From: a virus
Lineage: Duplodnaviria > Caudoviricetes
IMG/VR virus record: IMGVR_UViG_3300021389_000023
Span: 1-60,676 of that record
DNA length: 60,676 nt
Reading direction: 5' to 3' (one strand)
Made by a program: the position numbers and the translations under genes. Of the stretch, positions 19,422 through 49,201 are shown piece by piece. The stretch's first letter is position 1; each line of letters opens with the position of its first letter. Under the pieces are notes generated by a model. The model did not search any database. It was not told the origin of the DNA and was given only the letters and a program-made list of their open reading frames with translations.

Positions 19422-19635
19422 AAAGATATCTATAGGAGCTGACTATAAGTCTAGTTCTATGCATTATATATATGGTCAAGGCGTTTTAAATAACCAGTAC
19501 TATATACATCTGATACAGTATGATGAGACATCTGAATCTTATAAAATATGGATAGAGAGGGATGGTGAAATTTTACTTTGGAAAAAGTTCAATAGGAATA
19601 TGCCAATATCTATAGAATTTAATATAAACTTTTAA
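19411..19635 (+). CDS. Conserved hypothetical protein (IRKISIG.DYK..MHY)
   Basis: GTG start, coupled to neighbours. Confidence 0.7.
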   Translation: MEIRKISIGADYKSSSMHYIYGQGVLNNQYYIHLIQYDETSESYKIWIERDGEILLWKKFNRNMPISIEFNINF

Positions 19636-22688: not shown

Positions 22689-25105
22689 AAGAGATAAATA
22701 TATCTGTAAACTCGTCTTCATTTCCCAGCCAGTATGTACCTGACTCTAAGAAGAATACAAAAGAGTTTGGTCTACAGATAGGTCAAGCCATTCAGTATGA
22801 GTGGTTTAAGAGAGATAATGGAGGTTCAAAATTTTACAACCAATGGGATGCCTTCCATAAACTAAGGCTATACGCTAGAGCAGAACAATCTGTAGCTAAA
22901 TATAAGAACGAACTATCTGTAGACGGAGACTTGTCATACATGAACTTAGACTGGACACCTGTCCCAATAATACCTAAGTTCATAGACATAGTTGTTAACG
23001 GAATGGCAGACAGAATGTTTGACATTAAGGCTTATGCACAAGATGCAATGTCTGCTGAAAAGAGAAATAGTTATCAAGACAATATAGAGTCAGACATGGT
23101 CTCTAAGGACTTGCTTACACAAATAAAAGATGACTTTGGGGTAGATGCATTTAATACATCACCAGAAGAGTTACCAGAGACAGATGATGAGTTACAATTG
23201 CATATGCAGCTTAACTATAAGTCGTCTATAGAGTTGGCTGAAGAGGCGGCTATAAATACTATACTTTCTGAGAACAAGTATGAGGATACTAGAAAAAGAA
23301 TTGTATATGACCTAACTACACTAGGTATAGGTGTTGCAAAGCACGAGTTCTTACCTGGAGCAGGTATTGTTGCTAAGTATGTAGACCCAGCTAATGTTGT
23401 ATATAGCTATACTGAAGACCCTAACTTTAATGATTGTTTTTATTGGGGTGAGGTTAAGACAGTACCTATAACTGAGGTTGTAAAGATAGACCCTAGTATA
23501 AGTAACGAAGATTTAGAGGCTATTGGAAAATACAGTCAGGCATGGCATCAGTACTCTCATTCTACACAGTATTATGATAATTCTATATTTAGTAATGACA
23601 GCGTAACACTTTTATATTTCAACTATAAGACCACAAAGAAGATGGTTTATAAGAAGAAGGGTGAAAAAGTTATTGAGAAGGATGATGAGTTTAATCCACC
23701 ACAAGAGATGATGGATGAAAGAGGGTTTGATAAGATTGAGAAGAAGATAGAGGTATGGTATGAGGGTGTTATGGTTATGGGTACAAACATCATACTTAGA
23801 TGGGAGTTAGCTAAGAATATGGTAAGACCTAAGTCTGCATCTCAAAACTCAAGTTCTAATTATATTGCTTGTGCTCCAAGGATGTATAAGGGTAATATAG
23901 AGTCATTACTTAGACGTATGGTTCCTTTTGCGGATCTTATACAGATGACTCACCTTAAACTACAACAGGTAATACAGAAGGTTGTTCCAGATGGTGTATT
24001 TATTGATGCTGATGGTATTAATGAGGTTGACCTTGGTAATGGAGCAGCATACAGCCCTGAAGATGCACTTAGGCTATACTTTCAGACAGGTTCTGTTGTT
24101 GGTAGAAGTTATACTCAGGATGGAGAGTTTAATAATGCAAGAGTTCCAATACAGGAACTTTCTAAGAATAGTGGTCAGGGTAAGATAGGAAGCCTTATAG
24201 GTAGTTATAATCATTACCTACAGATGCTTAGAGATGTAACTGGACTTAATGAGGCTCGTGATGGTTCAATGCCTGATCCAAACTCATTAGTAGGGTTACA
24301 GAAGCTTGCAGCATTAAATAGTAATACAGCAACTAGACATATATTAGACGGTACTTTGGATATAACTAGAGACCTAGCTGTAGCACTTTCATGTAGAGTG
24401 TCTGATGCTTTAGAGTATCATCCATACAAGGATGAATTTATAATGCAGATAGGTAAGTATAATGTAAACCTACTTAATGATATTAAGGATTTACACATAT
24501 ATGACTTTGGAATATTTATAGAGATGGCTCCTGACGATGAGCAGAAACAACAGCTAGAACAAAATATTCAAGTAGCTCTCTCTCGTGACGCTATTGATTT
24601 GGATGATGCCATTGATATACGTGAGGTTAGAAATGTAAAGCTAGCTAATCAGTTATTAAAGGTTAAAAGAAAAAGAAAAGAAAAAGACAGACGTGCTTAC
24701 GAGATGCAGAAGGTTCAGCAACAACAGCAGGGACAGATGCAGTCTCAACAGATAGCTGCTCAGGCTGCTGCTCAGAAGATACAGATGGAGGCTCAGGCTA
24801 AGATGCAGATCGCTCAAGCTGAAGCAGGTTTCTCATTAGAGAAGCTTAGAGGTGAGGCTGAGTTGAAGACTCAATTGATGCAACTTGAATTCCAATTAAA
24901 CATGCAGTTAAGGGGTGTTGAGGCTGATATGGTAAACAGTAGAGAGGATAGTAAAGAAAAGGCTAAGGATGATAGGATAAGTAAACAGAATACGCAACAA
25001 TCAAGACTTATTGAGCAGCGTAAGAAAGATTTACCTCCTATAAATTTTGAGTCCAATGAGGATACTCTAGATGGATTTGATCTGTCTGAGTTTGAGCCTA
25101 GATAA
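22685..25105 (+). CDS. Portal protein
   Basis: 806 aa following TerL; IPKF.D.VVNG motif; Q-rich C-terminal coiled coil. Confidence 0.88.
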   Translation: MKEINISVNSSSFPSQYVPDSKKNTKEFGLQIGQAIQYEWFKRDNGGSKFYNQWDAFHKLRLYARAEQSVAKYKNELSVDGDLSYMNLDWTPVPIIPKFIDIVVNGMADRMFDIKAYAQDAMSAEKRNSYQDNIESDMVSKDLLTQIKDDFGVDAFNTSPEELPETDDELQLHMQLNYKSSIELAEEAAINTILSENKYEDTRKRIVYDLTTLGIGVAKHEFLPGAGIVAKYVDPANVVYSYTEDPNFNDCFYWGEVKTVPITEVVKIDPSISNEDLEAIGKYSQAWHQYSHSTQYYDNSIFSNDSVTLLYFNYKTTKKMVYKKKGEKVIEKDDEFNPPQEMMDERGFDKIEKKIEVWYEGVMVMGTNIILRWELAKNMVRPKSASQNSSSNYIACAPRMYKGNIESLLRRMVPFADLIQMTHLKLQQVIQKVVPDGVFIDADGINEVDLGNGAAYSPEDALRLYFQTGSVVGRSYTQDGEFNNARVPIQELSKNSGQGKIGSLIGSYNHYLQMLRDVTGLNEARDGSMPDPNSLVGLQKLAALNSNTATRHILDGTLDITRDLAVALSCRVSDALEYHPYKDEFIMQIGKYNVNLLNDIKDLHIYDFGIFIEMAPDDEQKQQLEQNIQVALSRDAIDLDDAIDIREVRNVKLANQLLKVKRKRKEKDRRAYEMQKVQQQQQGQMQSQQIAAQAAAQKIQMEAQAKMQIAQAEAGFSLEKLRGEAELKTQLMQLEFQLNMQLRGVEADMVNSREDSKEKAKDDRISKQNTQQSRLIEQRKKDLPPINFESNEDTLDGFDLSEFEPR

Positions 25106-25151: not shown

Positions 25152-26219
25152 ATGGAAATAAAAATAAAAGAGGTCGATGGTCCTGGACAGAAATCGATCC
25201 AAGAGGTCGAGGAAAAATTAATTGATCAACAGACCGAACAAGTAGAGGTCGAGAATACTACAGATGAAAAGACTGTAGAAGATAACACTCCTCAGTTTGG
25301 TGAGGAAGACGTTCTTTCATTTATTAAGAATAGATATGAAAAAGATATAAACTCTATAGACGAGTTGTTCTCTCAGCGTGAGCAGAATGATGAACTACCA
25401 GAGGATGTATCATCCTTCTTGAAGTATAAGAAGGAAACAGGTCGAGGTATTAATGACTTCATGAAGTTACAGATTGACTATGATGAACTAGACCCAGACC
25501 AAGTATTGCGTGACTATTATGCTGAAACCGAAAATGATTTAGACTCTGAGGATATTAATTACCTTATGAGTGAGAAATTTTCTTATGACGAAGATTTGGA
25601 TGATGAGTCGGAGATTAAGAATAAGCAGATCGCAAAGAAAAGAGAACTTGCAAAAGCTAAGAAGCATTTCAATGATCTAAAGGAGGCGTATAAGGTCCCT
25701 GTCGAGTCGACGGGTTCACCTGTCAACGAAGATGAAATGGAGTCCTACAAGGCTTACAAGGAATATATATCACAATCAGAAAGTATCCAAGAACAGAATC
25801 AGAAGCGTTCCGAATACTTCACCCAAAAGACTAACGATCTTTTCAACGATGATTTCAAAGGTTTTGAATTCGCAGTCGGTGATCAGAAGGTTATATTTAA
25901 TCCAGGTGACGTTAAGGAGGTAAAGAAGGTTCAGTCAGACGTAAATAACTTTATCTCTAAATTTTTAGATGATTCAGGTATGGTGAATGACCATGTTGGA
26001 TACCATAAGGCTTTAAGTGCTGCTTTGAATCCAGATAAACTTGCCACATACTTCTATGAGAAGGGTAAGTCTGACGCTGTTGATAATGTAGGTAAGACGA
26101 TAAAAAACATCGATATGGATGTTCGTTCTACACCTCAACAGATGACAACTAATGAAGGGTTTAAAATAAGAGCTGTAGAGTCTAATTCTAGTCGTGGTCT
26201 AAAGATTAAAAAAAGATAA
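25152..26219 (+). CDS. Putative capsid scaffolding protein
   Basis: Acidic and helical; lies between portal and major capsid genes. Confidence 0.75.
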   Translation: MEIKIKEVDGPGQKSIQEVEEKLIDQQTEQVEVENTTDEKTVEDNTPQFGEEDVLSFIKNRYEKDINSIDELFSQREQNDELPEDVSSFLKYKKETGRGINDFMKLQIDYDELDPDQVLRDYYAETENDLDSEDINYLMSEKFSYDEDLDDESEIKNKQIAKKRELAKAKKHFNDLKEAYKVPVESTGSPVNEDEMESYKAYKEYISQSESIQEQNQKRSEYFTQKTNDLFNDDFKGFEFAVGDQKVIFNPGDVKEVKKVQSDVNNFISKFLDDSGMVNDHVGYHKALSAALNPDKLATYFYEKGKSDAVDNVGKTIKNIDMDVRSTPQQMTTNEGFKIRAVESNSSRGLKIKKR

Positions 26220-26243: not shown

Positions 26244-27644
26244 ATGGCTTTTACATTAGGAGGATCTGTGAGTTTAACTCCAGCTCCAAGCCAGGTAACA
26301 TTACCTGGAAATTACATTACTGACTTCAACTTTTTGAATCAGTACTTACCAGACACTTACGAAAAAGAATTCGAGCGTTATGGTAACAGATCAGTTAGCT
26401 CTTTCTTAAGAATGGTTGGAGCTGAAATGCCTTGTACTTCTGACTTAATCAAGTGGTCTGAGCAAGGACGTTTACACATTAAATATGAGGGTGTTACTCT
26501 TGACGATGCTGAAGTAGCTGGTCAGGATGACGTTGTACTTAACATTACAGGTCACGCACTTAGAAAAGGACAGACTGTAATGGTATCTGATGGATCTACA
26601 TCAGCTACTGCTTCTTTCAAAGGTATCATCACTGCTACTACTGCTGATACTGTAACTGTAGCTATCTATGACGCAGCTGGTCTTCCTGCTGTTGCTGGAT
26701 TAGCATCAGGTGATAACTCTGCTACTGACTTAGACTTATTTGTTTATGGTTCTGAATTTAAAAAAGGATCAAACGGAATGGATGGTGCTTTAGAGGCTGA
26801 AGAGGATATCAAGGAAAATAACCCAATCATCATCAAGGACAAGTATTCAGTATCAGGTTCTGACATGGCTCAGATCGGATGGATCGAAGTTGAAGGAGAG
26901 AATGGTTCAGGATACCTATGGTACTTAAAGTCTGAGCACGAAACTCGTCAGCGTTTTGAAGATTATTTAGAGACTGCAATGATCGAGGCTGTTCCTGCTG
27001 AGGCTAACTCTGGAGCAATTGCTGCTAGTGGAGACTTAGGAAATAAAGGTTCTGAAGGTTTATTCTACGCTATAGAAAATGGTGGTAACACTACTACAGG
27101 TTCTTTAGCTGATTTAGATGATATCGATGCTGTTGTTACTCGTTTAGATAAGCAAGGTGCTATCGAAGAGAACGTTCTTTTCGTTAACCGTGCACTTTCT
27201 TTCGAGATTGACAATGTATTAGCTGCACAGAATAACTTCGGTTCTTCAGGTGCTTCTTTTGGATTGTTTGATAACGATCAAGATATGGCTTTAAACTTAG
27301 GATTCAACGGATTCCGTAGAGGATATGACTTCTATAAGTCTGACTGGAAGTACTTAAATGATGCAACTATGAGAGGTGGTATCGTTGGTGGTGCTGTAGA
27401 CGGAGTATTAGTTCCTGCTGGATCTACTAACGTTTATGACCAAATCATGGGTAAAAACGCTAAGCGTCCATTCTTACACGTAAGATATAGAGCTTCTGAA
27501 ACTGAAGATCGTAAGATGAAGTCTTGGATCGTAGGTTCTGCTGGAGGTGCTTCAAATAGCGATTTAGATGCTATGGAGGTTCACTTCTTATCAGAGAGAG
27601 CTTTATGTACATTAGGTGCAAACAATTTCTTCTTATTTAAATAA
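26244..27644 (+). CDS. Major capsid protein
   Basis: 466 aa; highly biased codon usage; position; downstream hairpin; W.EQGRLH motif. Confidence 0.88.
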   Translation: MAFTLGGSVSLTPAPSQVTLPGNYITDFNFLNQYLPDTYEKEFERYGNRSVSSFLRMVGAEMPCTSDLIKWSEQGRLHIKYEGVTLDDAEVAGQDDVVLNITGHALRKGQTVMVSDGSTSATASFKGIITATTADTVTVAIYDAAGLPAVAGLASGDNSATDLDLFVYGSEFKKGSNGMDGALEAEEDIKENNPIIIKDKYSVSGSDMAQIGWIEVEGENGSGYLWYLKSEHETRQRFEDYLETAMIEAVPAEANSGAIAASGDLGNKGSEGLFYAIENGGNTTTGSLADLDDIDAVVTRLDKQGAIEENVLFVNRALSFEIDNVLAAQNNFGSSGASFGLFDNDQDMALNLGFNGFRRGYDFYKSDWKYLNDATMRGGIVGGAVDGVLVPAGSTNVYDQIMGKNAKRPFLHVRYRASETEDRKMKSWIVGSAGGASNSDLDAMEVHFLSERALCTLGANNFFLFK

Positions 27645-38434: not shown

Positions 38435-41400
38435 ATGGACGATAAATATATAAAAGACATATACGACAATCTTGGAGGAGAATCTGTATTTGGTAATTAC
38501 AATGATTATTATTCATTAATAACATCTGACGACAGTTATATAAAGGATGTTTACGATTCTAAAGGAGAGTCTGTATTTGGGTCATATGATGATTTCGTTT
38601 CTCTTGTAAAAAAAAAAGACGATTCTGTCGTTTCTACTTCTCAAGAGGGCGTTACGGAATCCACTACCAAGGAAGAAGAGCAAACTATCTTATCGGATGC
38701 TTCAGGCGTAACAGTTGATACACCTACTTTAGATTACTATAAACCGAACAAGGTGGATTTACAAGGTGTAAACGAATACCTAGTTAGTATGGGTTTAGAT
38801 GAAGTAATAACCCCAGAAAAAGCAGATACGTCTATAGGTGATAATAATCAATACGAAAATATTAGAAACTATTTTTCAAAAAGAAATGAACCTGTAGATC
38901 TTAATGATAGAGGTGTATTAGAATCTATAAACAAAGGACTTATTTCAGATGAAGATTTAATTTTGGCTGGATACAAAGATCCTGAAGTAATTTCTACAAT
39001 AAAAAGACAGCCTACTCAAGAAGAGATTTTTAACGCCAAACAAAAAATATATTCAAGAAAGACTAAAACTTCAGATGAATTAGATTTCGCCATATCTCAA
39101 TTCAAACTAGACAAGCCTTATATTTATGAAGAAAAGTCAAGTGAAGATCTTAGCTTTATAGAATATAATTATAATTCAGAGGATCTTTCTGAAGCAAATG
39201 TAAATATAAAAGACTTTGACGGATTCTTAAATGAAAAGGGTTTGAAGCAGGATTTTATAAATAAGGCTAAAACTTTTGAGTCTACATACGGGTCTATTTA
39301 TGACCTTGATTTAGCTAAGGAAATGGAATTATCTAGAATGCTAGATCTTTATATTTCTGAGCAATCAAAGAGAGATATTAAGCAACAAAAATTACAGTAC
39401 GAAAAAGAACAAGGTATAGATCCAGATTTAACAGATGACAAATATTCTTTTAAATTGTCAGATAAAAATGTAAGTATACCTAAAATAAATGAGTACTACA
39501 AAAAAAACTATCCTAAGCTAACAGAAAAGCTTTTAGAGACAGATTCAAAAAACAGGGATTTATATAAAAAATATTTAGAAGGTGATTTTGGTAATTTAGA
39601 TTTTTTAAAAGAGTTTGGAGATCAAGGTTACGAAGGTTTTGAAACAAGACTACAAAACTTATCCGCTAGTTTTACTGATTTAATAGGTTTTTCTAACACT
39701 GCTCAGGGTATTAGATTTCAAATTGAGCAAGAAAAACTAGTAGATGGTGACAACTTATCTTACTCTTATGTTGGTGGAAAAAAAGTTAATATTGATGGTA
39801 AGAACTATATCGTAGACAGCAATAATCAGGTTTATGATGCCGACCTAAAGATACGTGTAACAAATTATATTGATGAAGATTTAAGAAATAATATAATAGA
39901 TAAGTCTGTGCAATTCGGCACTGAAGATTTTAGTATTAGCTCTAAAGGTATGGCTTTTGAAACATCAAACATTGTGGGTGATATGGTTGTTCAAATAGGC
40001 TTACAAGGAAGTTTTACAAGCGGTGGTAAAATAGTTTCTGCTATTTCCAATACAGACAAGGTAAGACGTGTATTAGGTTATGTTCCATCAAGTTTTAAAC
40101 AACTAACAAAAGGTTTGACAATAGATAGGGGAATAGCATCATCTATATTAGCTCAATCAACCTTAGGAGCTTCTTCTGGATATGAAGACACATTATTGGC
40201 TGCAAAAGAGGCTGGATTAAGTGATAAGGAATCAGTAGAGTTAGCTAGAGATGCTTCAATTCAAATGGCAAAACTTTATGCTCTTACCGCTCCAATATCA
40301 CCACAAACAAAAGCCACAGAAGCTATATTTGGTAAGATTAAAAATGAAACAATAAAAGACGCTATAAAAGCTTATAAGAATATAGGTAAAGAAGGTTTTA
40401 TCGAGATTTTTGAAAAAGCAGGAAGAAAAGCTACAACTTACTTTGAGGAGGGATTAAAGGAGGCTGGTCAAGAAAATATTCAACAGTCAGGAGAAACTCT
40501 TGTTGTAAATAAAAGAACAAATGAATTAGCTGGTGTAAAGCTAAAGGAAGACGAAGTTACTGTTGACAGCTTTATAAATACATCTCTGTTATCATTAACT
40601 TCTGGTTTTTTAATGCCTTTTGGTGGGGATTTAATAGGTGGTGCTAGAAGTAAATCAAAAAAACTACTAGGTATCGACGGTGTTGATAGAATTAAGGCAT
40701 TGAGATTACTATCTGAAAACCAAGAAAAACTAGAAAAATTATTAAAGGTTCAACAAAATAAAGGTATATACTCTGAATCTCAAGTAGCTGAATTACTTGG
40801 AGATGTTAGAGTTTACAAGGACAACGTGTCTAAGATACCTTCAGATTTGAAATCAGATACAGCTTTAGATGTTATATCTGACTTGGAAAGCATACGAAAA
40901 TTAGAAAATAAGAAAAAAACACTTGACCCTTCTTTTCACGAAGATATAGATAAAGAGATATCGGAGATAAGAGAGTCGATTAAACAAAAAACAAAGGAAG
41001 ATGCCATTCAAGAGCAAGAAACAAGAGATATACCTGATGCTGAACGAGCCGAAGGTGTACAAGAAATGGAAGAAGAAGTACGGGAGCCTGCTGTCGAAGA
41101 AACGGAAGAAGTAACAGAACAGTTATCCCCTGAGGAGAAAGCAGAAACAGTAAGTGAATTAATAAATAGACCAGTTACACTTACAAAACTTGGAGGTTTT
41201 GATTTAGATACCCCACTAGAAGGTGATATGTATGTAGATGGTCAGCGTATCGTTGTTGAAGATGCTAATGGAAATATTACAGATATAGGTAACGTTGACA
41301 AGATATCAGACAAGACATTAGATGAAATGGGTATCGAGCAACAAATGCCTAGTGTCACTACTACAGATGATGGTAATATTGAATTTGAAGGTAAAATATA

Positions 41401-44400
41401 CAACCCAGAAAGTGCACGTATAAGAAGAGACAGTAGAGGTAACATAACTTCAGTCACTCTTGATCAGGTTGGTAAGCCAAGGTCAAAAACATTACGTGGA
41501 AAAAATGCAGAAGATGCTGCATATAATGTGTTATTAAGACAAGCACAACAATCAACAGAAATAGAACAATTACTAGAACAAGATGAAGAATTCCAAAACG
41601 AACTTAGACAAGCTGAAGAAGCTGCCCAAGGCAAAACAGATCAAGATACTGAGCAGGCTACTACAGAAGAAAGCATAGCGAGTCCAGAGGTTACAATAGA
41701 AGATGCTCCAGATGGGACATTCTTAAACATAGAGATGGTTGAAGGCAAGGATGGTCGTGAAATGACTCAGAAAGAGATATTAGACGCACTTCCAGTAGAA
41801 CCTTTAAATGTTGAGGTTAGCGGTAAAACTCTTGTCATACAAGTCCCTAGAAAACTTTCTGGATCGGAGATGATGAAACTTGCTAAGGATACAGAGCAAG
41901 ATGCTATACCTCAGGTGTCAGGTAAGAAGGGTGTGCTACACGCACAATCTAAAGAGAAGATGGACCTGTATGAGGGAAAGTTTATACCTAATTTATTTGT
42001 AAAACCAAAAAAAATAATAAAAGATGAAAAACCTAAAGCAGGAAACAGGCTCTTCAATAAGCCCCTCAAGGCAGTTAAGGCAATTGCGGACAAGTATTAC
42101 AAGAGAATTTTCAAAGGTGAAAGACCAAGGTTTGAAGGTGTCAAAAAGATAGACAAGGAATTCGCCAAAAGAATATCCGACGCATTTGAAGCCATGCAAG
42201 AGAATCCTAACGATCCTGAAGTAAAGGCTGCTTATGAAGCTCTAGCAAAGGAGACTATGGATCAGTATCAGGACTTCAAGGATGCAGGATACACTATAGA
42301 GGTTAATAACTCTGAGCCATACAAAAATGCTCAGGAGATGATTGATGATCTTAGGGATAATAAGAGGATGAAAATCTTCTCCACAGAGTCAGGATTTGGA
42401 GATACTCCTATAACAGAAAAACAAAGGAAAGAGAATCCACTTCTTAGAGACTCTGGTGTCAAGGATGTAAACGGAGAGACTCTTCTCGTTAATGACATAT
42501 TTAGAGCTGTACACGACTTCTACGGACACGCAGAGCTAGGTAATGGATTTGGCCCTGTTGGCGAAGAGAATGCGTGGAACGTTCATGCTAGAATGTTTTC
42601 TCCACTAGCACGTAGAGCTATGACTACTGAGACAAGAGGACAGAACTCTTATGTTAATTTCTCAGGGGTAAATGATGAAGCATTTAAGCTAAGGGATCAG
42701 GCCAGAAAACTAAGAAAGGAAGGAAAGGAGGCAGAGGCAGAGGCTTTAGTGGCTAAGGTCTATGAGATCATGAAGTTTGCCGATCAAAAGATTGGACTGC
42801 TTCCAGAAGAATTTTCATCTTTAGAGCAGGACGGTGTATCTAAACTTAGAGAGATGTTCAAGTCTACTAGCAAAAGGAAGCAGGTCGACAATGCATTGAA
42901 CGCACTGTCTAAGATAGCACCAGATGTTGAGGTGATACTGCATGAGAGTGAACAAGCGTATGCTGAAGCTACAGGAGAGACGGGTCGTAAACAAAAGACG
43001 GCAGGTACATATGATGAGACTATAGTTGACGGAAAGGTTAAGAAGGTTATACACATAAACCCTGACAAGGCTAACGCAAGGACTGTAGCTCACGAGGCAT
43101 TCCACGCTATATTCCTTAACATCGTAAAGAGTGATGCGGAGGCTCAGAGGCTTTCTGCTGCTATGATAAAGGCTGTATATAAGTCTGCACCTGCCGAACT
43201 AAAAAAACTTATAGATAACTTTGCTGAATCAAAGAATGCTGACGGAAGCAATAACTATGACTCAGCTGTACAGAATGAAGAGAAGCTTGCAGAGCTTATA
43301 GGATACCTTGCTACTGAATACGACTCATTACCAAAGCCAACTAAGAATGTTATAAAAAGATTCCTGGATAGACTTGCTAAGATGTTTGGTATGAAGCCAT
43401 TCACAGACAATGAGGTTATAGACGTACTAAACACTATAGCTGGTAAGGTGGCAAGAGGTGAGGCTGTAACACAGGAAGACTTATCTTCTATACAGTCTAA
43501 TGCTAAATATGTTTCTCAAGACGAAGCAAAACTTTGGGGTACAGTACCCGAAAGAAAACAAGTTAGAACAAAACCTGATCCAAAGAAAACCGTAAAGGCA
43601 TATAAAATGTTTAGGGTTAACAAATCTAAACCTGGTAAATTATTTCCATTATTTGTCAATGCAAATGATGAGGTATTAATGAATACTTGGCTTGATGCTG
43701 AAGTTGGAGAACTAACAAAAGATGGTAAAGTTAAATCTAAAATAGGAAATTTAGCTTACAGACCTGGATGGCATATGGGTGATTTACCTATAGCTACACA
43801 TATAGGTGATAAATATAATTTTAAAAAAGGAGAGGTAGATAAAAGTTTAAAAAAACCAACTGCAAGAAGTGCTAATCATGTATGGGCTGAAGTTGAAGTT
43901 GCCGCAGACGTTAATTGGCAAGAGGAAGCTAACAAGAGAGCAAAGAAAACAAAGGCTGGTAAAATAATACCAAGGACAGCACACATAACCGATCGATTAC
44001 CAGAAGACGGTTACTACAGATATAAAACAAATCCTAATATGACTGGCGAGTGGCTTATTGGTGGCTCAATAAAAGTTACTAAATTACTTACTGATGATGA
44101 GGTAAAAGCTATTAATGATGAGGCTGGTGTTGCAGACCTTCCAAGGGTTAAAGAATTAGATTTAAAATCAATAGGATTTGATAGAGATACTGATGTAGAT
44201 CTTAAGGTTACTCCTGCACCAACTGACTCAAAAGGAAATTTAAAAACGCCATCAAAAAAATCACAGAATAATCTTAAGAAGAGAAAACAAAATATAATAG
44301 ATGGAGTTAAGGATCAAGTTGTATCTGGAGAAATTGTTAGCACATCTCTACCAAATAAAGATGATGTTCATTCTAGTAAAGAATATGTAGTAGGTATATC

Positions 44401-47400
44401 TTCACTTGAAGAAATGGCTAGTACAGATAACAGGGCTAAGGATCAGTATATTAAAATTTCTAAAGAAGCAGCTTCATACGGAATATCTAAAACTAAAAAT
44501 GTAAATAATTTTGAAGATGCCAAGCAAGTTATATCTGAGTTTAAAGAAGTTGTAAAATCAAATTTAAAATGGCTTTATGACTCAGTAGATAAAGATGTTA
44601 GAGATATAAGTAAACTATGGTATGACGGAGCTAATAAAATATCTAATGATTTAGCAAATCAATATGGATATACAACAGAACAAGTTGCTGGAGTAATGGC
44701 TGTGCTAAGTCCTCAGATGGATTGGTTTAGAAATTTATCTTTAGGAGAAAGGGTTATTGATATATACAAAAACAATCAGGACTCACTGTTTGATGAGAAG
44801 ATGATAGAATTTGTTAATACAAAAACTACTGGTACTGGTAAAAATAAAAAACCTCTTTTTAAAAATAAAGAAGAAATAATATCAAGAGTAAAAAATAAAA
44901 AATTATCTGAACTAAGTTCTAAAGATCAATCATATTTTATAAGGGTTTATGATGAAGTTTATAATTCTAGAAACTACAACAACATAACTCCTAACGGAGA
45001 AATAAATGGACTTGTTAGAACTAAAAATGGTAACCCTGGTAAGGTTGGTTGGGGTGATTTTTCTACTATTGAGAAAGCTATATCTATACTAAATGATGGA
45101 TCAGTTAAAAATATTTCTACAAATCTAGGTAATCAACATAAGGTAAGAAATTTCTTTAATAACATATCAAATCCTAATGATAAAAATGCAGTTACGATTG
45201 ATACTCATGCTGTTGCAGCTGCATTATTAAAACCTTTATCAGGTAAATCAAAACAGGTTGCTTATAATTTTGGAGGATCATCATCTGTATCTACTGGTAT
45301 GACTGGAACATATCCTGTTTATGCGGATGCTTATAGAGAATTAGCTAATGAGCTGGGTATTCTTCCTAGAGAAGTTCAAAGTATAACATGGGAAGCAGGT
45401 AGAGGTTTATTTAAGGCTGCATTTAAATCTAACAAAAGCAATGAACAAAAAATAGATAATATTTGGAATAAATATAATTCTGGTGATATATCATTAAAAG
45501 AAGCTCAATCGAAAATAGAAAAACTAGCAGGAGGTATAAGTACACCTGTGTGGTATGAATATTTAGCTGATAATAATATTGAATCCTTAGACCAAAACTC
45601 AGCAGCTTTAGATCAATCTAATTTAGATGAAGAACCAATCACTAGATCTCGTAAGCAGGTTAACTTAGCTCCAAATGGAAAGCCTAGTAATCTAAATCAA
45701 GAGCAGTACGATATAGTACGTACACCTAAATTTAAGAATTGGTTTGGTGACTGGGAAAATGACCCTGAAAATTCTAGTAAGGTTGTCGATGAGAACGGTG
45801 AGCCGCTTGTTGTCTATCATGGTGGGCCAATAATAAAAGGCGACTCTTTTAGAAAAGGGTATGCAGACGGTAATTTAAGAGGAGATAAGGGAATATATTT
45901 TACAGAAAATAAAGAATTTGCTAAATACTTTGCTCATCAAAATGAACTTGTCGAAAGAGATAAAAGAAATTTTGAATACGATGATATTCCTGAGAGCGAG
46001 TTAGAGACAGGAGAGCCATTTAATGAAAAGTATTTTAAATATTCTGAAATCTATCCTGTGTTTCTTAACTTAAAGAAACCTACAATATCAGAAACGGGAA
46101 ATGCTAATTTGATACCTCGTCTGTACGAGGAAGGAGCAGATGGGTTTATAACAAAATCAACATCAGATTTTGGTTATGACGCAGGACAATACATAGCCTT
46201 CGAGCCTAACCAAATCAAACTCGCAGACGGAAGCAACAAGACCTTCGACCCAGACGCACCTTCTATTCGTAAGCAAGCACCAGGGAGACCAAGTATCGGA
46301 GAGATAGTTAGAAAGGGTAAACAGAACAATATTTCTGACGCTGATATAAGACAGTTCGCAAAGGAAGAAGGTTATACAGATGCAGAGATAACTGCCGCTA
46401 TGAATATTCCTTCTTCGGAAGAAATAGTTGAACGATCTGAGAAGGCTATAAAAGATAAGTTGAAGAAAAGAGATTTTAAAGGTACTATGAGGTATCTTAG
46501 AAAGAAAATTTTTGACAGACAGACATATATAAAAGACGTTCTTAAGGGTGTTGGAAATAAAAAATCAGTAAGAGCTCATAATAGGTTAGTAACAAAGGCT
46601 GGAGCTAAAGGTTTCGCTAACTATAGATTTAAGAAGGCAGAAAAAGAAATATTTAGCAATCTATCTGAAAAAGAAAAAAAACAGCTTGACGCTCTTATAT
46701 ATGCAAGAAGAATAGTCGCTATAAATGAAAATAGAAAGAAAAGAGGTGAGGATGAATATGTAGGAGCAGGTGGATATAATTATGATAAAGCTAAGTCAGA
46801 GGTTGAGGCATTTTCTAATGACAAGCTATCCAAAAGAGCTGATAAGTATTTTGAAGTATTTAATCAAAACCTAAAGAGGTTACGTGACTCAGGTAGAATA
46901 TCAGAAGATGTATATATAAGCCTAAGGGACATAGAATATTCACCTATAAAAACTATTAAGTATATTATAGGAGACAATCACAGCACTTCAGAAATGAATA
47001 ATCTAGCTAACTCAATTGGTGTCAGTCAAAAAGATATAATGGCACTTAGTGACGAGAATATTAATGATTTAATTACTGACTCACGTTGGCTTCTTATGAT
47101 GAATATAAGTGCTGTTGAAAATAGAGCTGCCACAAATGAAGTATTAAATTTGTTTTATGATGCAATAGAATCAGCAGATGCAGATGGTTTAGCAGCTATA
47201 AGTGACAACATTCTTGACAACCCAATTATTGGAAATAAAGAATCAGGAGCACCTAAATTTAAGTATGATGACGTTAAAGTTCCTGTAGGATATAGAACAG
47301 TATCATTCTTTAAGGATGGTGTTGAACACAAGATGGTGATGAGGGAAGAGTATGCTAGACAGTTGTTGGATATCAAAGTTGACGATAAGACATTGAAGGC

Positions 47401-49201
47401 TCTTAGGAAATTTACTTTTGGTAATGTTCTAAGGTTCTTTGCTACATCAGGAAATCCATTATTCATAGTAGGTAACACTGCGGTTGACTTTCAGAATATA
47501 CTATTCCTTGGAGATACCTATTCTAAATTTAAGTTAGTTGGAGGTGTTGAGCTTGGTTTTGATTTTGTAAACAATTCTTTGAAGAAAATATTTAACACTG
47601 GTAGTTACCAAAAAACCTATGAGGAGTTTATGACGTATGGTGGTGGTATGGATTTTCTATCTGTGGATGGTATAAAGGCAATTAAAGGTATCAGTAGGTT
47701 TAACAAGCCGAAGACTTTACTTCAAAAAGGAATGGTAAAGTGGGGTGAAGGATTATCCTACCTTGGGGAGACATCTGAGATGGCTTTTAGGTTGGCTGTA
47801 TATGAAAAAACAAGGTCAAAACTAATAAACCAATATAAAAAAGATAATAAGAAAGAACCTACAGGTCAGGATCTTGAGGATATACTTTATGAATCAGCTA
47901 GGGAATCTAGGGAGACCATTGATTTTAGTCAAGGAGGAGATCTTGTTAAATCAGCAGACTATGTACTACCATACCTGAATGCATCAGTACAAGGTGCTAG
48001 AAGGGCTGTTGATTACGCTTCAAAAAATCCAGGTGGTTTTGCATCTAGTATGATTCAGTATGCTGTTATGTCTGGAGGTCTTCTGGCTAGCTCTCTATAT
48101 ATGTTATCATCAGCATTCGATGATGAGGATGATGAAGAGGAGAAGGCTAAGAAGATGAAAGACGCATGGAGTAGTGTTAGTGATTACGAAAAATCAGCAT
48201 ACCACATAATATTTACAGGTGATGTTGATGAGGATGGGGAGTATGAATACTATAGGTTTAAAAAACTACCTGTTATAGGGTTACTGTCTACAACTGTTGA
48301 GGAGTCTATAATAAGTACGTACTTAAAATCAAAAGGTGTGGACTATGAATTTAATACAGAAAGCGTATCTAAGGCATTAGACAAAACATCTCCTATAGGT
48401 ATAACAGATATTGGTTCGAGAAACCCTGTAATATCTGGTGTACTTAGTTATGTGTACAATAAAGATACATTTACAGGAGAAGAAATTTTTAGAGGACCTA
48501 GAGGAAAGATAATACTTCCAGAGGCAGAGGGTATTTTAGATAATAAAGTAGAGCAGATATATAAAGACATAGCTCCTTTACTTGGAATGTCACCTAAAAG
48601 AACTCAGGTAATGGTTGAGAAGGTTATAACTAACGAAAGAACAAACCCATTGGTAGGAGTAATGTACGGTGGTTATAACGGTGTGTTTTCAAAGGAAACA
48701 ACTGTGGGTGAGGAGATGAAGGAGACAATGAATGGTGTATTAAAATCATTCAGCGGTAAGATAAAAAGATCAACCAACTCAAAGCTACAGGAATACAAAA
48801 AGATGGATGAGGTTAAAAAGGTTGAGGCTGAGATGGAAACTGAAATATACATTAAAGAGCAGAAGGTGTATAATGCTATAAAAGAAAAGAGAAAGAATAA
48901 GCAAGATATAGATGCTGGTTTCTTGAGGGATATTGTAAAGGAAAATTTTGAAAGAAAAGATTGGAAGAAGTATGGAAGAAAATTCTCAACATACGCAAAA
49001 AACGCAAACATAGATAGATCTATATTAGATTTAATCTACGAGGATACTCCAGAGGTTCAAGCTTATAAGATATTTTCAAGATATGGAGATGCTCTAGATG
49101 CTGATGAGAAGGAAGAACTTAAAAATGCTATAAAATCAGCCAGAAAAAATCTAAATAAGAAGGCATTAAGTATTTACAATAAGGAATACCGCAAAAAATA
49201 G
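38435..49201 (+). CDS. Giant polyvalent (ejection) protein: HD..GH domain, zincin peptidase (HEAFH), YRPGWH domain, HhH-glycosylase-like domain, ART-PolyVal-like ADP-ribosyltransferase, LPD38-like C-terminus
   Basis: 3588 aa; motifs FRAVHDFYGH, AHEAFH...EEKLAE, LAYRPGWH, HKVRNF..N...VTIDTH, FKNWFGDW...VVDENGEPLVVYHG...GIYFT, DFSQGG...PYLNASVQG. Confidence 0.85.
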   Translation: MDDKYIKDIYDNLGGESVFGNYNDYYSLITSDDSYIKDVYDSKGESVFGSYDDFVSLVKKKDDSVVSTSQEGVTESTTKEEEQTILSDASGVTVDTPTLDYYKPNKVDLQGVNEYLVSMGLDEVITPEKADTSIGDNNQYENIRNYFSKRNEPVDLNDRGVLESINKGLISDEDLILAGYKDPEVISTIKRQPTQEEIFNAKQKIYSRKTKTSDELDFAISQFKLDKPYIYEEKSSEDLSFIEYNYNSEDLSEANVNIKDFDGFLNEKGLKQDFINKAKTFESTYGSIYDLDLAKEMELSRMLDLYISEQSKRDIKQQKLQYEKEQGIDPDLTDDKYSFKLSDKNVSIPKINEYYKKNYPKLTEKLLETDSKNRDLYKKYLEGDFGNLDFLKEFGDQGYEGFETRLQNLSASFTDLIGFSNTAQGIRFQIEQEKLVDGDNLSYSYVGGKKVNIDGKNYIVDSNNQVYDADLKIRVTNYIDEDLRNNIIDKSVQFGTEDFSISSKGMAFETSNIVGDMVVQIGLQGSFTSGGKIVSAISNTDKVRRVLGYVPSSFKQLTKGLTIDRGIASSILAQSTLGASSGYEDTLLAAKEAGLSDKESVELARDASIQMAKLYALTAPISPQTKATEAIFGKIKNETIKDAIKAYKNIGKEGFIEIFEKAGRKATTYFEEGLKEAGQENIQQSGETLVVNKRTNELAGVKLKEDEVTVDSFINTSLLSLTSGFLMPFGGDLIGGARSKSKKLLGIDGVDRIKALRLLSENQEKLEKLLKVQQNKGIYSESQVAELLGDVRVYKDNVSKIPSDLKSDTALDVISDLESIRKLENKKKTLDPSFHEDIDKEISEIRESIKQKTKEDAIQEQETRDIPDAERAEGVQEMEEEVREPAVEETEEVTEQLSPEEKAETVSELINRPVTLTKLGGFDLDTPLEGDMYVDGQRIVVEDANGNITDIGNVDKISDKTLDEMGIEQQMPSVTTTDDGNIEFEGKIYNPESARIRRDSRGNITSVTLDQVGKPRSKTLRGKNAEDAAYNVLLRQAQQSTEIEQLLEQDEEFQNELRQAEEAAQGKTDQDTEQATTEESIASPEVTIEDAPDGTFLNIEMVEGKDGREMTQKEILDALPVEPLNVEVSGKTLVIQVPRKLSGSEMMKLAKDTEQDAIPQVSGKKGVLHAQSKEKMDLYEGKFIPNLFVKPKKIIKDEKPKAGNRLFNKPLKAVKAIADKYYKRIFKGERPRFEGVKKIDKEFAKRISDAFEAMQENPNDPEVKAAYEALAKETMDQYQDFKDAGYTIEVNNSEPYKNAQEMIDDLRDNKRMKIFSTESGFGDTPITEKQRKENPLLRDSGVKDVNGETLLVNDIFRAVHDFYGHAELGNGFGPVGEENAWNVHARMFSPLARRAMTTETRGQNSYVNFSGVNDEAFKLRDQARKLRKEGKEAEAEALVAKVYEIMKFADQKIGLLPEEFSSLEQDGVSKLREMFKSTSKRKQVDNALNALSKIAPDVEVILHESEQAYAEATGETGRKQKTAGTYDETIVDGKVKKVIHINPDKANARTVAHEAFHAIFLNIVKSDAEAQRLSAAMIKAVYKSAPAELKKLIDNFAESKNADGSNNYDSAVQNEEKLAELIGYLATEYDSLPKPTKNVIKRFLDRLAKMFGMKPFTDNEVIDVLNTIAGKVARGEAVTQEDLSSIQSNAKYVSQDEAKLWGTVPERKQVRTKPDPKKTVKAYKMFRVNKSKPGKLFPLFVNANDEVLMNTWLDAEVGELTKDGKVKSKIGNLAYRPGWHMGDLPIATHIGDKYNFKKGEVDKSLKKPTARSANHVWAEVEVAADVNWQEEANKRAKKTKAGKIIPRTAHITDRLPEDGYYRYKTNPNMTGEWLIGGSIKVTKLLTDDEVKAINDEAGVADLPRVKELDLKSIGFDRDTDVDLKVTPAPTDSKGNLKTPSKKSQNNLKKRKQNIIDGVKDQVVSGEIVSTSLPNKDDVHSSKEYVVGISSLEEMASTDNRAKDQYIKISKEAASYGISKTKNVNNFEDAKQVISEFKEVVKSNLKWLYDSVDKDVRDISKLWYDGANKISNDLANQYGYTTEQVAGVMAVLSPQMDWFRNLSLGERVIDIYKNNQDSLFDEKMIEFVNTKTTGTGKNKKPLFKNKEEIISRVKNKKLSELSSKDQSYFIRVYDEVYNSRNYNNITPNGEINGLVRTKNGNPGKVGWGDFSTIEKAISILNDGSVKNISTNLGNQHKVRNFFNNISNPNDKNAVTIDTHAVAAALLKPLSGKSKQVAYNFGGSSSVSTGMTGTYPVYADAYRELANELGILPREVQSITWEAGRGLFKAAFKSNKSNEQKIDNIWNKYNSGDISLKEAQSKIEKLAGGISTPVWYEYLADNNIESLDQNSAALDQSNLDEEPITRSRKQVNLAPNGKPSNLNQEQYDIVRTPKFKNWFGDWENDPENSSKVVDENGEPLVVYHGGPIIKGDSFRKGYADGNLRGDKGIYFTENKEFAKYFAHQNELVERDKRNFEYDDIPESELETGEPFNEKYFKYSEIYPVFLNLKKPTISETGNANLIPRLYEEGADGFITKSTSDFGYDAGQYIAFEPNQIKLADGSNKTFDPDAPSIRKQAPGRPSIGEIVRKGKQNNISDADIRQFAKEEGYTDAEITAAMNIPSSEEIVERSEKAIKDKLKKRDFKGTMRYLRKKIFDRQTYIKDVLKGVGNKKSVRAHNRLVTKAGAKGFANYRFKKAEKEIFSNLSEKEKKQLDALIYARRIVAINENRKKRGEDEYVGAGGYNYDKAKSEVEAFSNDKLSKRADKYFEVFNQNLKRLRDSGRISEDVYISLRDIEYSPIKTIKYIIGDNHSTSEMNNLANSIGVSQKDIMALSDENINDLITDSRWLLMMNISAVENRAATNEVLNLFYDAIESADADGLAAISDNILDNPIIGNKESGAPKFKYDDVKVPVGYRTVSFFKDGVEHKMVMREEYARQLLDIKVDDKTLKALRKFTFGNVLRFFATSGNPLFIVGNTAVDFQNILFLGDTYSKFKLVGGVELGFDFVNNSLKKIFNTGSYQKTYEEFMTYGGGMDFLSVDGIKAIKGISRFNKPKTLLQKGMVKWGEGLSYLGETSEMAFRLAVYEKTRSKLINQYKKDNKKEPTGQDLEDILYESARESRETIDFSQGGDLVKSADYVLPYLNASVQGARRAVDYASKNPGGFASSMIQYAVMSGGLLASSLYMLSSAFDDEDDEEEKAKKMKDAWSSVSDYEKSAYHIIFTGDVDEDGEYEYYRFKKLPVIGLLSTTVEESIISTYLKSKGVDYEFNTESVSKALDKTSPIGITDIGSRNPVISGVLSYVYNKDTFTGEEIFRGPRGKIILPEAEGILDNKVEQIYKDIAPLLGMSPKRTQVMVEKVITNERTNPLVGVMYGGYNGVFSKETTVGEEMKETMNGVLKSFSGKIKRSTNSKLQEYKKMDEVKKVEAEMETEIYIKEQKVYNAIKEKRKNKQDIDAGFLRDIVKENFERKDWKKYGRKFSTYAKNANIDRSILDLIYEDTPEVQAYKIFSRYGDALDADEKEELKNAIKSARKNLNKKALSIYNKEYRKK
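41001..41114 (+). CDS. Nested +1-frame gene, 37 aa: MPFKSKKQEIYLMLNEPKVYKKWKKKYGSLLSKKRKK
   Basis: Hand-translated; A-rich leader; matches the MPFKS..Q..Y...NEP...KW...YG small phage protein pattern as recalled. Confidence 0.7.
   Translation: MPFKSKKQEIYLMLNEPKVYKKWKKKYGSLLSKKRKK
41583..41678 (+). CDS. Nested +1-frame gene, 31 aa: MKNSKTNLDKLKKLPKAKQIKILSRLLQKKA
   Basis: Hand-translated; spans an acidic linker of the giant protein; A-rich leader. Confidence 0.45.
   Translation: MKNSKTNLDKLKKLPKAKQIKILSRLLQKKA

Follow-up and report, generated by a model that had tools for sequence, protein, structure and literature searches.

Introduction

Out-of-frame embedded genes are textbook matter for very small ssDNA phages and for the Rz/Rz1 pair. 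Gene E of phiX174 lies inside gene D in the +1 frame, and its product, a membrane protein, has a transmembrane helix and blocks MraY. The lambda o-spanin Rz1, a lipoprotein that bears a signal sequence and a lipobox Cys and partners the product of its host gene, is encoded, also at +1, within the i-spanin gene Rz. To our knowledge, embedded out-of-frame genes are not annotated in the large genes of tailed phages, where gene callers forbid them. A small cationic protein is described for phage phiKT, whose disruptin gp28 has 56 aa, is strongly cationic and is predicted to be helical (Holt et al., bioRxiv 10.1101/515445). The host gene treated here belongs to the polyvalent proteins of phages as these are described by Iyer et al. 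(2017, PMC5512222). In the literature searched on overlapping or embedded phage genes and on polyvalent proteins, we found no description of an out-of-frame gene in a polyvalent linker, and a search by title and abstract found no paper on the protein family reported below.

Here we analysed the complete genome of a flavobacterial-type podovirus (60,676 nucleotides, 60.7 kb, hereafter the window), in which a small ORF lies in the +1 frame of a giant virion gene. As a whole, the locus is very probably best explained as a functional overlapping gene for a cationic member of a phage protein family that we call MPFKS after its first residues.

Results

The embedded ORF and its host gene

The original prediction had placed a small ORF in the +1 frame of the giant gene, and its coordinates, stop and translation were reproduced exactly (Table 1). 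The ORF translates to MPFKSKKQEIYLMLNEPKVYKKWKKKYGSLLSKKRKK (P0001), which contains 13 K and 1 R and has a net charge of +12. As (41001-38435) mod 3 is 1, it is in the +1 frame relative to the giant gene, and the whole of it lies inside that gene on the same strand. Upstream of its ATG is the A-rich leader TAAACAAAAAACAAAGGAAG, and across the linker the giant ORF reads KEDAIQEQETRDIPDAERAEGVQEMEEEVRE, both as first described. In Pfam, the giant protein (P0002) matched DUF7178 with 95.7 bits (cut-off 27) and ART-PolyVal with 49.6 bits (cut-off 31.2), and LPD38 with 20.9 bits, which is under its cut-off of 27. It thus has several conflict/LPD domains in one giant polypeptide (DUF7178 and ART-PolyVal), as polyvalent proteins do.

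The length of the embedded ORF is not beyond chance, since it ranks 2nd of the 112 ATG-started +1-frame ORFs in the giant gene, the longest of which has 42 aa (42024-42152). T content is 12.7% around the embedded ORF vs 26.8% across the giant gene, and because the stretch is T-poor, stops are rare and an open length of 37 aa is expected. Unlike its length, the similarity of P0001 to known proteins was far beyond chance by phmmer.

Table 1 Features of the window that bear on the embedded gene
Feature	Coordinates	Strand	Basis or remark
Lysis cassette	10836-11724	+	PHROG; amidase 10836-11267, holin phrog_3427 11248-11724
Portal gene	22685-25105
Scaffold-like head gene, 355 aa, empty here	25152-26219	+	hhalign to the ~410-aa host family
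Major-capsid-like gene	26244-27644
Host gene, 3588-aa polyvalent virion protein (P0002)	38435-49201	+	Pfam domains
A-rich, G-poor, unstructured leader, KQKTKE in the host frame	40981-41000	+	sequence
Acidic linker DAIQEQETRDIPDAERAEGVQEMEEEVRE of the giant protein, host-frame reading	41000-41086	+	translation
Embedded gene, MPFKS family, 37-aa basic	41001-41114	+	+1 frame of the giant gene; start ATG at 41001, end includes the stop TAA at 41112-41114

The MPFKS family

Against 1,835,955,588 representative proteins, phmmer with P0001 gave 82 matches at E<=1e-3 (best 3.2e-7, none at 1e-10), with stand-alone homologs among them. The matched proteins, mostly 39-60 aa long, were 47-77% identical across residues 1-30, and nearly all the matches, whose alignments took in residues 1-30 or more, began at residue 1. 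The stand-alone small phage protein of the original prediction exists. Its family comprises 810 clusters at E<=1e-3 and at least 243 viral loci, with a 63-sequence consensus of MPFKSxKQRxYLxxNxPEIAKRWxKKYG and with median values of 44 aa and net charge +13; annotated stand-alone members in cultured phages include URG13095.1 of 023Pt_psg01 and gp48 of Streptomyces phage FlowerPower. Common to the family is a core of MPFKSxKQxxYLxxNxPxI[AY]xxWxxKYG followed by a Lys/Arg-rich basic tail. P0001 keeps every column that is invariant or at least 90% conserved in two alignments (A1 with 23 and A3 with 63 sequences), which are M1, P2, F3, S5, Q8, L12, N15, P17, W23 and G28; its core up to Y27-G28 has no indels, and its length and tail are within the family range (about 34-60 aa, Lys/Arg-rich tail). 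AlphaFold gave a pLDDT of 84.8 with helices at 6-15, 17-27 and 30-36, and the core is confidently predicted to fold as a helical hairpin.

P0001 matched 0 Pfam families at E<=10, and Pfam and PHROGs scans of P0001, 23 family members, the ~410-aa hosts and the in-frame fusions gave nothing usable, the sole PHROGs match being phrog_1375 (function unknown, E about 0.006). Since neither collection has a model of the family, no function could be transferred. Foldseek against BFVD returned uncharacterised family members alone (best E 0.009), and neither Foldseek nor sequence search of the PDB gave a meaningful match. In the protein atlas, the family falls in unnamed clusters whose nearest named neighbour has DUF3008 on 15% of its members, at a score of 0.85, where the lead threshold of the atlas is 0.9. 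DUF3008 (PF11450) proteins are likewise small phage and bacterial proteins and presumably have a similar MP.KS.KQ start, and hmmscan with the Pfam model matched neither P0001 (E<=10) nor the 23 family members (E<=1). Among 50,697 phage records, blastn and tblastn with the window stretch and P0001 found no match, blastn of 40985-41100 gave matches at chance level (E 0.09), and no embedded copy was found in any cultured phage.

Genomic homes of the gene

Arrangements were counted in the best 80 of at least 243 viral loci found through the peptide. At 41 of them a longer ORF enclosed the small ORF in its +1 frame, 29 were stand-alone and 10 were in-frame N-terminal fusions; several database proteins likewise carry MPFKS as the in-frame N-terminus of long proteins. 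The embedding hosts were 7 giants (1149 to >2400 aa) and 34 members of a ~410-aa family of scaffold-like head genes. This family was rejected as a possible domain of the giant protein, with an hhalign probability of 0.1. Two unrelated host genes thus carry the family in the same +1 geometry in many phages, a general habit that the original prediction did not foresee. We also considered a -1 shift, driven by the K-rich tail, from the peptide frame into the host body, which would make an MPFKS-body fusion; this idea was dropped because BLASTP (E<=1e-5) found no relation between the bodies of the in-frame fusions and the host proteins.

For an unbiased sample, 80 loci were found through the body of the ~410-aa head gene only. 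The embedded ORF was intact in 65, disrupted in 2 (L142 and L161), absent in 12 and truncated in 1, which gives 65/79 intact when the truncated locus is left out, and the 12 head genes without the ORF had no copy within 2.5 kb either. An ATG preceded PF in all 64 relatives of this sample that were examined. The giant gene's closest relatives (L172, L173, L178 and L009-L011) likewise carry the ORF intact, so that stand-alone homologs and unbroken ORFs in close relatives, the two points on which the original prediction was to stand or fall, were both found. L005 has a 4-codon deletion that takes out the conserved Q8-Y11, and has no ATG directly before PF. By these counts (41 of the best 80; 65/79), most of the sampled marine phages of flavobacterial type carry the family inside other genes.

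The head gene of the window sits between the portal and the capsid-like gene and matched the ~410-aa family with an hhalign probability of 100 (E 1e-53). No second MPFKS copy was found in the window, and each of 7 genomes checked had a single copy, in the giant or in the head gene: the window and G005-G009 have it in the giant with the head gene empty, and G004 has the reverse. In other phages, a third home is stand-alone, downstream of the same holin family (phrog_3427) that occurs in the lysis cassette of the window, which itself has no MPFKS copy. This is one gene with three alternative genomic homes. The gene was absent from the incomplete records G001-G003 and from the cultured Elemovirus MT497071, and it is dispensable in some relatives.

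It could be argued that the ORF is a decaying relic, that is, a free MPFKS gene swallowed by gene fusion into the giant ORF and now neither expressed nor selected. Polyvalent proteins grow by fusion (PMC5512222), openness is cheap where T is scarce, and some relatives show the losses, disruptions and L005 deletion described above. But the 65/79 intact ORFs of the unbiased sample, the persistence of ORF and ATG among hosts with protein identities of only 24-52%, and the phasing of variation described below all speak against it, and a relic does not explain why each genome checked has exactly one copy, in one place or the other. So we consider this reading improbable.

Selection on the two frames

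The original prediction had proposed synonymous-site constraint in frame 0 as a check. In statistics on related sequences that carry no phylogenetic correction and overstate independence, entropy at peptide codon positions 1/2/3 was 0.596/0.570/0.869 in head-gene hosts (30 unique) and 0.558/0.318/0.635 in giants including the window (8), against 0.760/0.553/1.120 at host positions 1/2/3 in the non-overlapped body of the same host genes; amino acid identity was higher in the peptide frame than in the host frame (0.653 vs 0.478 and 0.693 vs 0.508); and of 78 pooled differences between the window and six relatives over 96 nt, 38 were synonymous for the peptide (18% expected) and 4 for the host (22% expected). 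Inside the overlap, variation was thus highest at peptide third positions and lowest at host third positions. Natural variants in public runs showed the same phasing, with 6/8 inside the overlap at peptide position 3 and 0/8 at host position 3, and 13/17 outside it at host position 3. The overlap is 93-94% identical in nucleotides to L009 and L178, whose giants are about 25-35% identical to that of the window, and part of this high identity may stem from recent horizontal exchange and not from long-standing constraint.

The codon for Phe3 was TTC in 42/42 embedded copies and TTT in 24/29 stand-alone ones. TTT would give a TAA stop in the host frame. TTC, obligatory in embedded copies, is a diagnostic codon choice, as is CCA/CCG.

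As judged from these alignments, it is the peptide frame, not the host frame, that is under purifying selection. Because host third positions vary least and host-frame changes are nearly all non-synonymous, the linker sequence appears to be largely dictated by the peptide frame, and an acidic inter-domain linker would tolerate whatever that frame dictates. True dual coding, as originally proposed, is strongly supported, because membership in the family, the intact ORF and ATG recurring in two hosts, the phased variation, the single copy per genome and the predicted fold all point to it. The locus would then be a clean natural system for two proteins sharing DNA, in which an acidic linker absorbs the constraints of a basic mini-protein.

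Another explanation is that the host-frame motif DA[IV]Q.Q.T...EVR, or a nucleotide element (RNA structure, recombination site or packaging site), is what is conserved, MPFKS being a gene-caller shadow. The motif does recur wherever the ORF is embedded, and contigs of unrelated organisms match about 40984-41083 only, at >=80%. But 29 of the best 80 loci have no long overlapping frame, and the TTT found at Phe3 in 24/29 of them puts a stop in the would-be host frame; the 10 fusions among the best 80 loci and the database proteins have MPFKS as an in-frame N-terminus; host-frame substitutions are non-synonymous; folding of 70 nt of RNA gave no stable structure (MFE -2 kcal/mol, z 0.42); and the +1 reading gives a confident predicted fold. 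We therefore regard it as very improbable.

Start site and predicted translation

The leader has A at -3, as is described for initiation in Bacteroidetes, and the genes of the window have no Shine-Dalgarno sequence and are A-rich at -15..-10. The start-context score of the embedded ATG was 8.0, which ranks 2nd among the 239 internal ATGs of the giant gene and exceeds 84% of 56 presumed gene starts. The ORF thus has, like known embedded phage genes, its own conserved ATG (64/64) and a plausible initiation site. It is hardly credible that the ORF is instead read through a programmed frameshift out of the giant frame, the product being a giant protein cut short and ending in a basic C-terminal tag. 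Although A/G-rich, Lys-codon-rich sequence is slippery in principle and such products are common in phage structural genes (PMC5009743), a +1 stop lies 10 codons upstream of the ATG in the window (stop-to-stop 40971-41114), 2-17 codons upstream in 64 relatives and 0-1 in L028 and L011, the ATG is invariant, and stand-alone family members begin Met-Pro-Phe.

For the preferred reading of a functional overlapping gene, P0001 would be translated from late structural mRNA by internal, Shine-Dalgarno-independent initiation at its own ATG, and the A-rich, unstructured leader of Bacteroidota type, with its A at -3, would serve initiation independently of the giant protein. The locus would in this way point to such initiation within a 10.8-kb ORF in phages of Bacteroidota. 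RNA-library contigs cover 40901-41571, which shows the presence of the giant gene's DNA or RNA only.

Discussion

The arrangement resembles E in D of phiX174 in that a small, late-acting gene lies wholly within a larger morphogenetic gene in the +1 frame, the MPFKS host is often a scaffold-like head gene, and free copies occur in lysis cassettes. Unlike E, MPFKS proteins lack a hydrophobic segment (no 18-aa window in 63 family members contains more than 12 hydrophobic residues). They also belong to tailed dsDNA phages, and their gene occurs free-standing and in a second host as well. With Rz1 in Rz the arrangement shares the out-of-frame +1 embedding in a tailed phage and a possible link to lysis; its hosts, however, are virion or head genes, and P0001 has neither Cys, nor signal peptide, nor hydrophobic stretch, so we rejected it as an o-spanin. 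Like gp28 of phiKT, P0001 is small, cationic and helical by model, but the conserved core of MPFKS is folded, unlike a simple amphipathic helix, and the family is also found in Streptomyces phages.

A place among the lysis genes would be expected of a disruptin. The lysis genes of the window lie elsewhere than P0001 (Table 1), and at 8/22 stand-alone loci a gene of the PHROG lysis category lies no more than three genes away; in FlowerPower, for example, the order is gp47 peptidase, gp48 (MPFKS) and gp49 holin. Because stand-alone copies commonly have holin and endolysin genes on either side, the function may tentatively be read as that of a cationic protein which is expressed late and takes part in lysis, and P0001 would then be a candidate for the missing late or lysis small protein of these phages. 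Against it count the place of the window copy outside the lysis cassette, the 14/22 stand-alone loci without a lysis neighbour, and the occurrence of the family in phages of Streptomyces, where there is no outer membrane to disrupt. Alternatively, P0001 may belong to the head module as a small protein associated with nucleic acid or with the capsid.

Rather unlikely, in our view, is a nomadic, single-copy, disruptin-like lysis factor that moves between the lysis cassette and structural-gene linkers and replaces spanins. In flavobacterial and other marine phages it would repeatedly have entered acidic linkers of late structural genes, each time in the +1 frame, and its dose and timing would be slaved to virion production. 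If so, the locus would be a tailed-phage counterpart of E in D of phiX174, and a lysis gene would be systematically overlooked by gene callers in hundreds of genomes of marine phages. Whatever the function, the locus is a warning that genes may hide in the linkers of polyvalent proteins.

We also considered the 42-aa +1 ORF of the giant gene as a second hidden gene; its similarity in L173 was not above that of the host frame, and it is unsupported independently. The start context of this ORF is the best in the giant gene.

Embedded ORF within the giant gene

In the complete virus record (60,676 bases), a small ORF with an ATG start and a TAA stop was found one base out of phase with the giant gene, that is, in its +1 frame, and its product P0001 is MPFKSKKQEIYLMLNEPKVYKKWKKKYGSLLSKKRKK. 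The giant frame reads DAIQEQETRDIPDAERAEGVQEMEEEVRE across 41000-41086. The ORF, its translation, its frame, the acidic linker of the giant frame and the A-rich leader were all borne out as originally described by coordinates and translation. The giant protein P0002 matched DUF7178 (95.7 bits) and ART-PolyVal (49.6 bits) above the Pfam cut-offs, with LPD38 below its cut-off at 20.9 bits, and by these domains it is a polyvalent protein.

Features of the embedded ORF and related genes in the window
Feature	Positions	Strand	Remarks
Embedded ORF	41001-41114	+	P0001
A-rich leader of embedded ORF	40981-41000	+	
Enclosing giant ORF	38435-49201	+	3588 aa, P0002
Second +1 ORF of giant gene	42024-42152	+	42 aa, P0189
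Nucleotide island	40984-41083		N-terminal coding part of small gene
Portal	22685-25105		
Homologue of ~410-aa family	25152-26219	+	hhalign probability 100, E 1e-53
Capsid-like gene	26244-27644		
GroEL-like chaperonin	6276-7820		phrog_5725, E 8.5e-129
GroES-like co-chaperonin	19635-20204		phrog_13932

The length of the embedded ORF ranked second among the 112 ATG-started +1-frame ORFs of the giant gene, and stops are scarce in this stretch because its T content is only 12.7%, compared with 26.8% for the gene, so length alone was not more than chance. The second +1 ORF is longer, and for start context its ATG scored highest of the giant gene's 239 internal ATGs. In the metagenome relative L173, similarity was 64% for P0189 and 66% for the host frame; this ORF thus gave no independent sign of selection.

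The MPFKS protein family

The original prediction pointed to a stand-alone small phage protein with this motif, and such a family does exist. P0001 was compared by exhaustive phmmer search with 1,835,955,588 representative proteins. At E ≤ 1e-3 there were 82 hits, the best at 3.2e-7 and none reaching 1e-10; most of them are 39-60 aa long and open with the same motif at the first residue. Family alignments of 23 and then 63 members gave the consensus MPFKSxKQRxYLxxNxPEIAKRWxKKYG, and P0001 retains all invariant or nearly invariant columns (M1, P2, F3, S5, Q8, L12, N15, P17, W23, G28). Of 1339 candidates in the profile search, 810 clusters passed E ≤ 1e-3, and the 120 of these clusters that were listed carried no Pfam domain and no name other than 'hypothetical protein'. 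Annotated stand-alone copies occur in the cultured phages 023Pt_psg01 (URG13095.1, 39 aa) and Streptomyces phage FlowerPower (gp48, 72 aa); P-RSP2 and S-CBS2 were also matched by the family, and phage C75C1 has an unannotated copy. Searches with P0001 found no Pfam family at E ≤ 10 and a single PHROG match (E 0.93), and neither tblastn nor blastn found anything in 50,697 phage records. Membership in DUF3008 was rejected, with no Pfam match and a protein atlas lead of only 0.85.

A divergent embedded type, MPFK[SN]KAQ..ACYAQNNPKW[DN]CKKW, has two conserved cysteines absent from the canonical family (L105, L115, L127, L134, L143-L145, L151, and L180 of genome G004). Eight proteins of 315-789 aa (P0005, P0009, P0012, P0017, P0022, P0027, P0035, P0050) have an N-terminal MPFKS domain, then blocks between which the motif AE[ST]F[NSDG]A[EDQ] recurs, and a common hydrophobic C-terminal segment. 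They had no Pfam or PHROG matches, and look like polyproteins with putative repeated cleavage sites.

Same arrangement in other phages

An IMG/VR scan with the family profile confirmed at least 243 relatives. Among the best 80 loci analysed, the ORF lay in the +1 frame of a longer ORF in 41, with the same geometry as in the window, formed the in-frame N-terminus of 154-438 aa proteins in 10, and stood alone in 29. Seven of the 41 enclosing ORFs were giants (1149 to >2400 aa, most reaching the locus end), and 34 belonged to one ~410-aa family, in which the peptide starts at about host residue 43-95 (13 in one locus with a shortened open frame). The two host families are mutually unrelated (no relation by BLASTP; hhalign probability 0.1). 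Flavobacterium Elemovirus phages encode a homologue of the ~410-aa family, a 339-aa 'structural protein' whose gene is flanked by those of 813-aa and 457-aa structural proteins. The family's homologue in the window is placed between the portal and capsid-like genes; the putative label 'scaffold-like' comes from gene position only. The MPFKS gene has three homes: the giant gene, the scaffold-like head gene and a stand-alone position.

Because these loci had been found through the peptide, a peptide-independent sample was obtained by searching with the body of the ~410-aa protein only. Relatives made up 598 of the 600 pattern matches, and in the best 80 of the 598 the family HMM matched the +1 frame within the host ORF in 49 at E ≤ 1e-3; reading the remaining loci revealed divergent ORFs also starting with MPFK, of two further sequence types. 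In total, 65 embedded ORFs were intact, 2 were disrupted (L161 by an internal stop; L142 without a start and with a stop), 12 were absent, and 1 locus was truncated. A simple pattern recovered 64 intact ORFs; ATG preceded Pro-Phe in 64/64, and these ORFs were 36-54 aa long with a +1-frame stop 2-17 codons upstream.

The scaffold-like open frames in this sample (L088-L167) had a median of 407 aa with the embedded ORF (n = 56) and 396 aa without it (n = 23), and were 355-389 aa where the copy sits in the giant gene, as if some tens of codons had been inserted into the N-terminal linker along with the ORF.

Selection on the two frames

Nucleotide entropy was calculated over the first 84 nt, where the third codon position of the peptide is the first position of the host. 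For peptide positions 1/2/3 it was 0.596/0.570/0.869 in 30 unique head-gene copies, 0.558/0.318/0.635 in 8 giants including the window, and 0.808/0.572/1.424 in stand-alone copies. By host positions, the head-gene overlap gave 0.823/0.590/0.581, and the non-overlapped body of the same genes (283 codons) showed the normal pattern of 0.760/0.553/1.120. The least variable position in the overlap was therefore the host third position. Embedded copies varied less than free ones at the peptide's third position, as some added constraint from the host frame would predict. Mean pairwise amino acid identity was higher for the peptide than for the host frame (0.653 vs 0.478 and 0.693 vs 0.508), also in the two divergent types (0.895 vs 0.688 and 0.694 vs 0.490).

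The window was then compared with six giant-gene relatives over 96 nt (differences/synonymous for peptide/synonymous for host: L172 14/7/1, L173 13/7/1, L178 6/3/0, L009 7/5/0, L010 24/11/1, L011 14/5/1). Pooled, these gave 78/38/4, where random change would be synonymous in 18% of cases for the peptide and 22% for the host (binomial P 7e-10 and 9e-5, respectively, with the pooled pairs being non-independent). In contigs from four public runs on 40500-41600, 6 of the 8 variable sites in the overlap were at peptide position 3 and 0 at host position 3, compared with 13 of 17 at host position 3 outside it. Codon choice also differed: Phe3 was TTC in 42/42 embedded copies and TTT in 24/29 stand-alone and 9/10 fused copies (TTT would make TAA in the host frame), and Pro2 was only CCA or CCG in embedded copies, with CCT in 14/29 free copies. 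Such choices are codon-level fingerprints of dual coding.

The true dual coding originally proposed is thus supported by the conserved ATG, by selection on the peptide frame and by the same +1 geometry in other phages, and the embedded ORF is very probably a selected, protein-coding overlapping gene. Small genes lying wholly within the +1 frame of a larger one include E inside D of phiX174 and Rz1 inside Rz of lambda, which have the same nesting as the window ORF in the giant gene. A spanin identity was rejected, as P0001 has no lipobox and no signal peptide. Paper listings on the motif and on genes embedded within phage or polyvalent-protein genes contained no description of this arrangement; the protein family and the pair of host genes are new, and the habit of one gene with alternative embedded or free homes is not known to have been described.

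In four public runs, contigs with flanks unrelated to the window matched it only at the island (at least 80% identity; one such contig had 1289 bases and a depth of 115), which means that many distinct phages present together in these samples share this stretch.

Start site and predicted expression

The capsid-like protein was 50-62% identical to proteins of Flavobacterium, Maribacter and Cellulophaga phages, so the host was assigned to Bacteroidota. Bacteroidota ribosomes are reported to ignore Shine-Dalgarno (SD) motifs and to prefer leaders that are unstructured and carry A at -3 (Baez et al., PMC6847099). As expected for such a phage, the upstream regions of 56 presumed window genes had no SD motif and were A-rich at -15 to -10. 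The start-context score of ATG 41001 (position-weight, 25 nt upstream) was 8.0, which ranked second among the 239 internal ATGs and exceeded 84% of presumed gene starts; the fold energy of the surrounding 70 nt was -2 kcal/mol, the same as shuffles. Entry by programmed frameshifting was ruled out by the +1-frame stop 2-17 codons upstream and the ATG in 64/64, which argues for own initiation; the ORF would be translated by SD-independent initiation at this ATG. RNA-library contigs spanned 40901-41571 at ≥99% identity, which indicates presence in such libraries, not translation.

Distribution and copy number among relatives

Searching with the giant protein sequence gave 7 viral and 7 metagenome loci. 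The viral loci kept the ORF only in L005 (35% identical), with a start shifted two codons upstream and a 4-codon deletion; other linkers and no embedded ORF were found at the site in L001-L004, L006 and L007. In the L005 ORF (about 3950-4085), core residues Q8-Y11 are missing and Ile takes the place of Met before Pro-Phe, while a Met lies two codons further upstream; this copy is possibly decaying. Intact ORFs with 84-94% nucleotide identity to that of the window were found in the metagenome loci L172, L173 and L178, the first two being the closest giant-protein relatives (49-52% identical), and L174-L177 were without it. Host-protein identity peaked locally at the overlap in L009 (0.77) and L011 (0.63), vs about 0.1-0.4 in the flanks.

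By six-frame HMM search the window has a single MPFKS copy. The related genomes G005-G009 gave one match each, in the giant gene, and their scaffold-like genes (357-389 aa) had no copy. G004 has a giant gene without the ORF and a divergent copy in the +1 frame of a 404-aa scaffold-like ORF. No copy was found in three incomplete records or in cultured Elemovirus MT497071.

Product and possible function

AlphaFold2 with the 63-sequence alignment gave P0001 a mean pLDDT of 84.8 (21 residues ≥90) and helices at 6-15, 17-27 and 30-36, a predicted small hairpin with a basic tail. The only Foldseek matches in BFVD were uncharacterised family members (best E 0.009), and the PDB gave no match to Foldseek or to a profile search of its sequences. 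P0001 has a net charge of +12; family medians are 44 aa and +13, and no transmembrane-like stretch was found in the family.

Of 22 stand-alone loci, whose 63 neighbours were annotated with PHROGs, 8 had a lysis-category gene within three genes: endolysin phrog_894 directly upstream (L033, L034, L040, L060), a transglycosylase/endolysin upstream (L055), holin phrog_3427 two genes upstream (L043, L065) or a lysozyme directly downstream (L048, L065). The window's own holin is also phrog_3427, and the FlowerPower gene order is peptidase-gp48-holin. The stop of the upstream gene overlaps the ATG (TAATG or TGATG) in 11/22. In being small, cationic and predicted helical, and in the lysis-gene neighbours of some stand-alone copies, MPFKS proteins resemble the phiKT gp28 'disruptin'; any membrane activity would be putative. 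A lysis-associated role may be entertained as possible but doubtful. Terminase, portal, capsid and GroES genes also occurred as neighbours, and the genes that house embedded copies are late structural ones. A role tied to the capsid or to nucleic acids seems unlikely. Because the family occurs in Streptomyces phages, a strictly outer-membrane role is argued against.

In five loci (L043 3442-4001, L048 3319-4001, L063 3717-4001, L065 3609-4001, L087 3453-4001), the MPFKS gene follows one or two other small, very basic, low-complexity proteins (phrog_23735, 25774, 16028 and 27331, PHROGs of unknown function) between holin-like and lysozyme genes. The stop and start codons of these mini-genes overlap, which suggests a run of translationally coupled mini-proteins. 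GroES genes adjoin stand-alone copies in L048, L078 and phage 023Pt_psg01, and the window encodes both a GroEL-like chaperonin and a GroES-like co-chaperonin.
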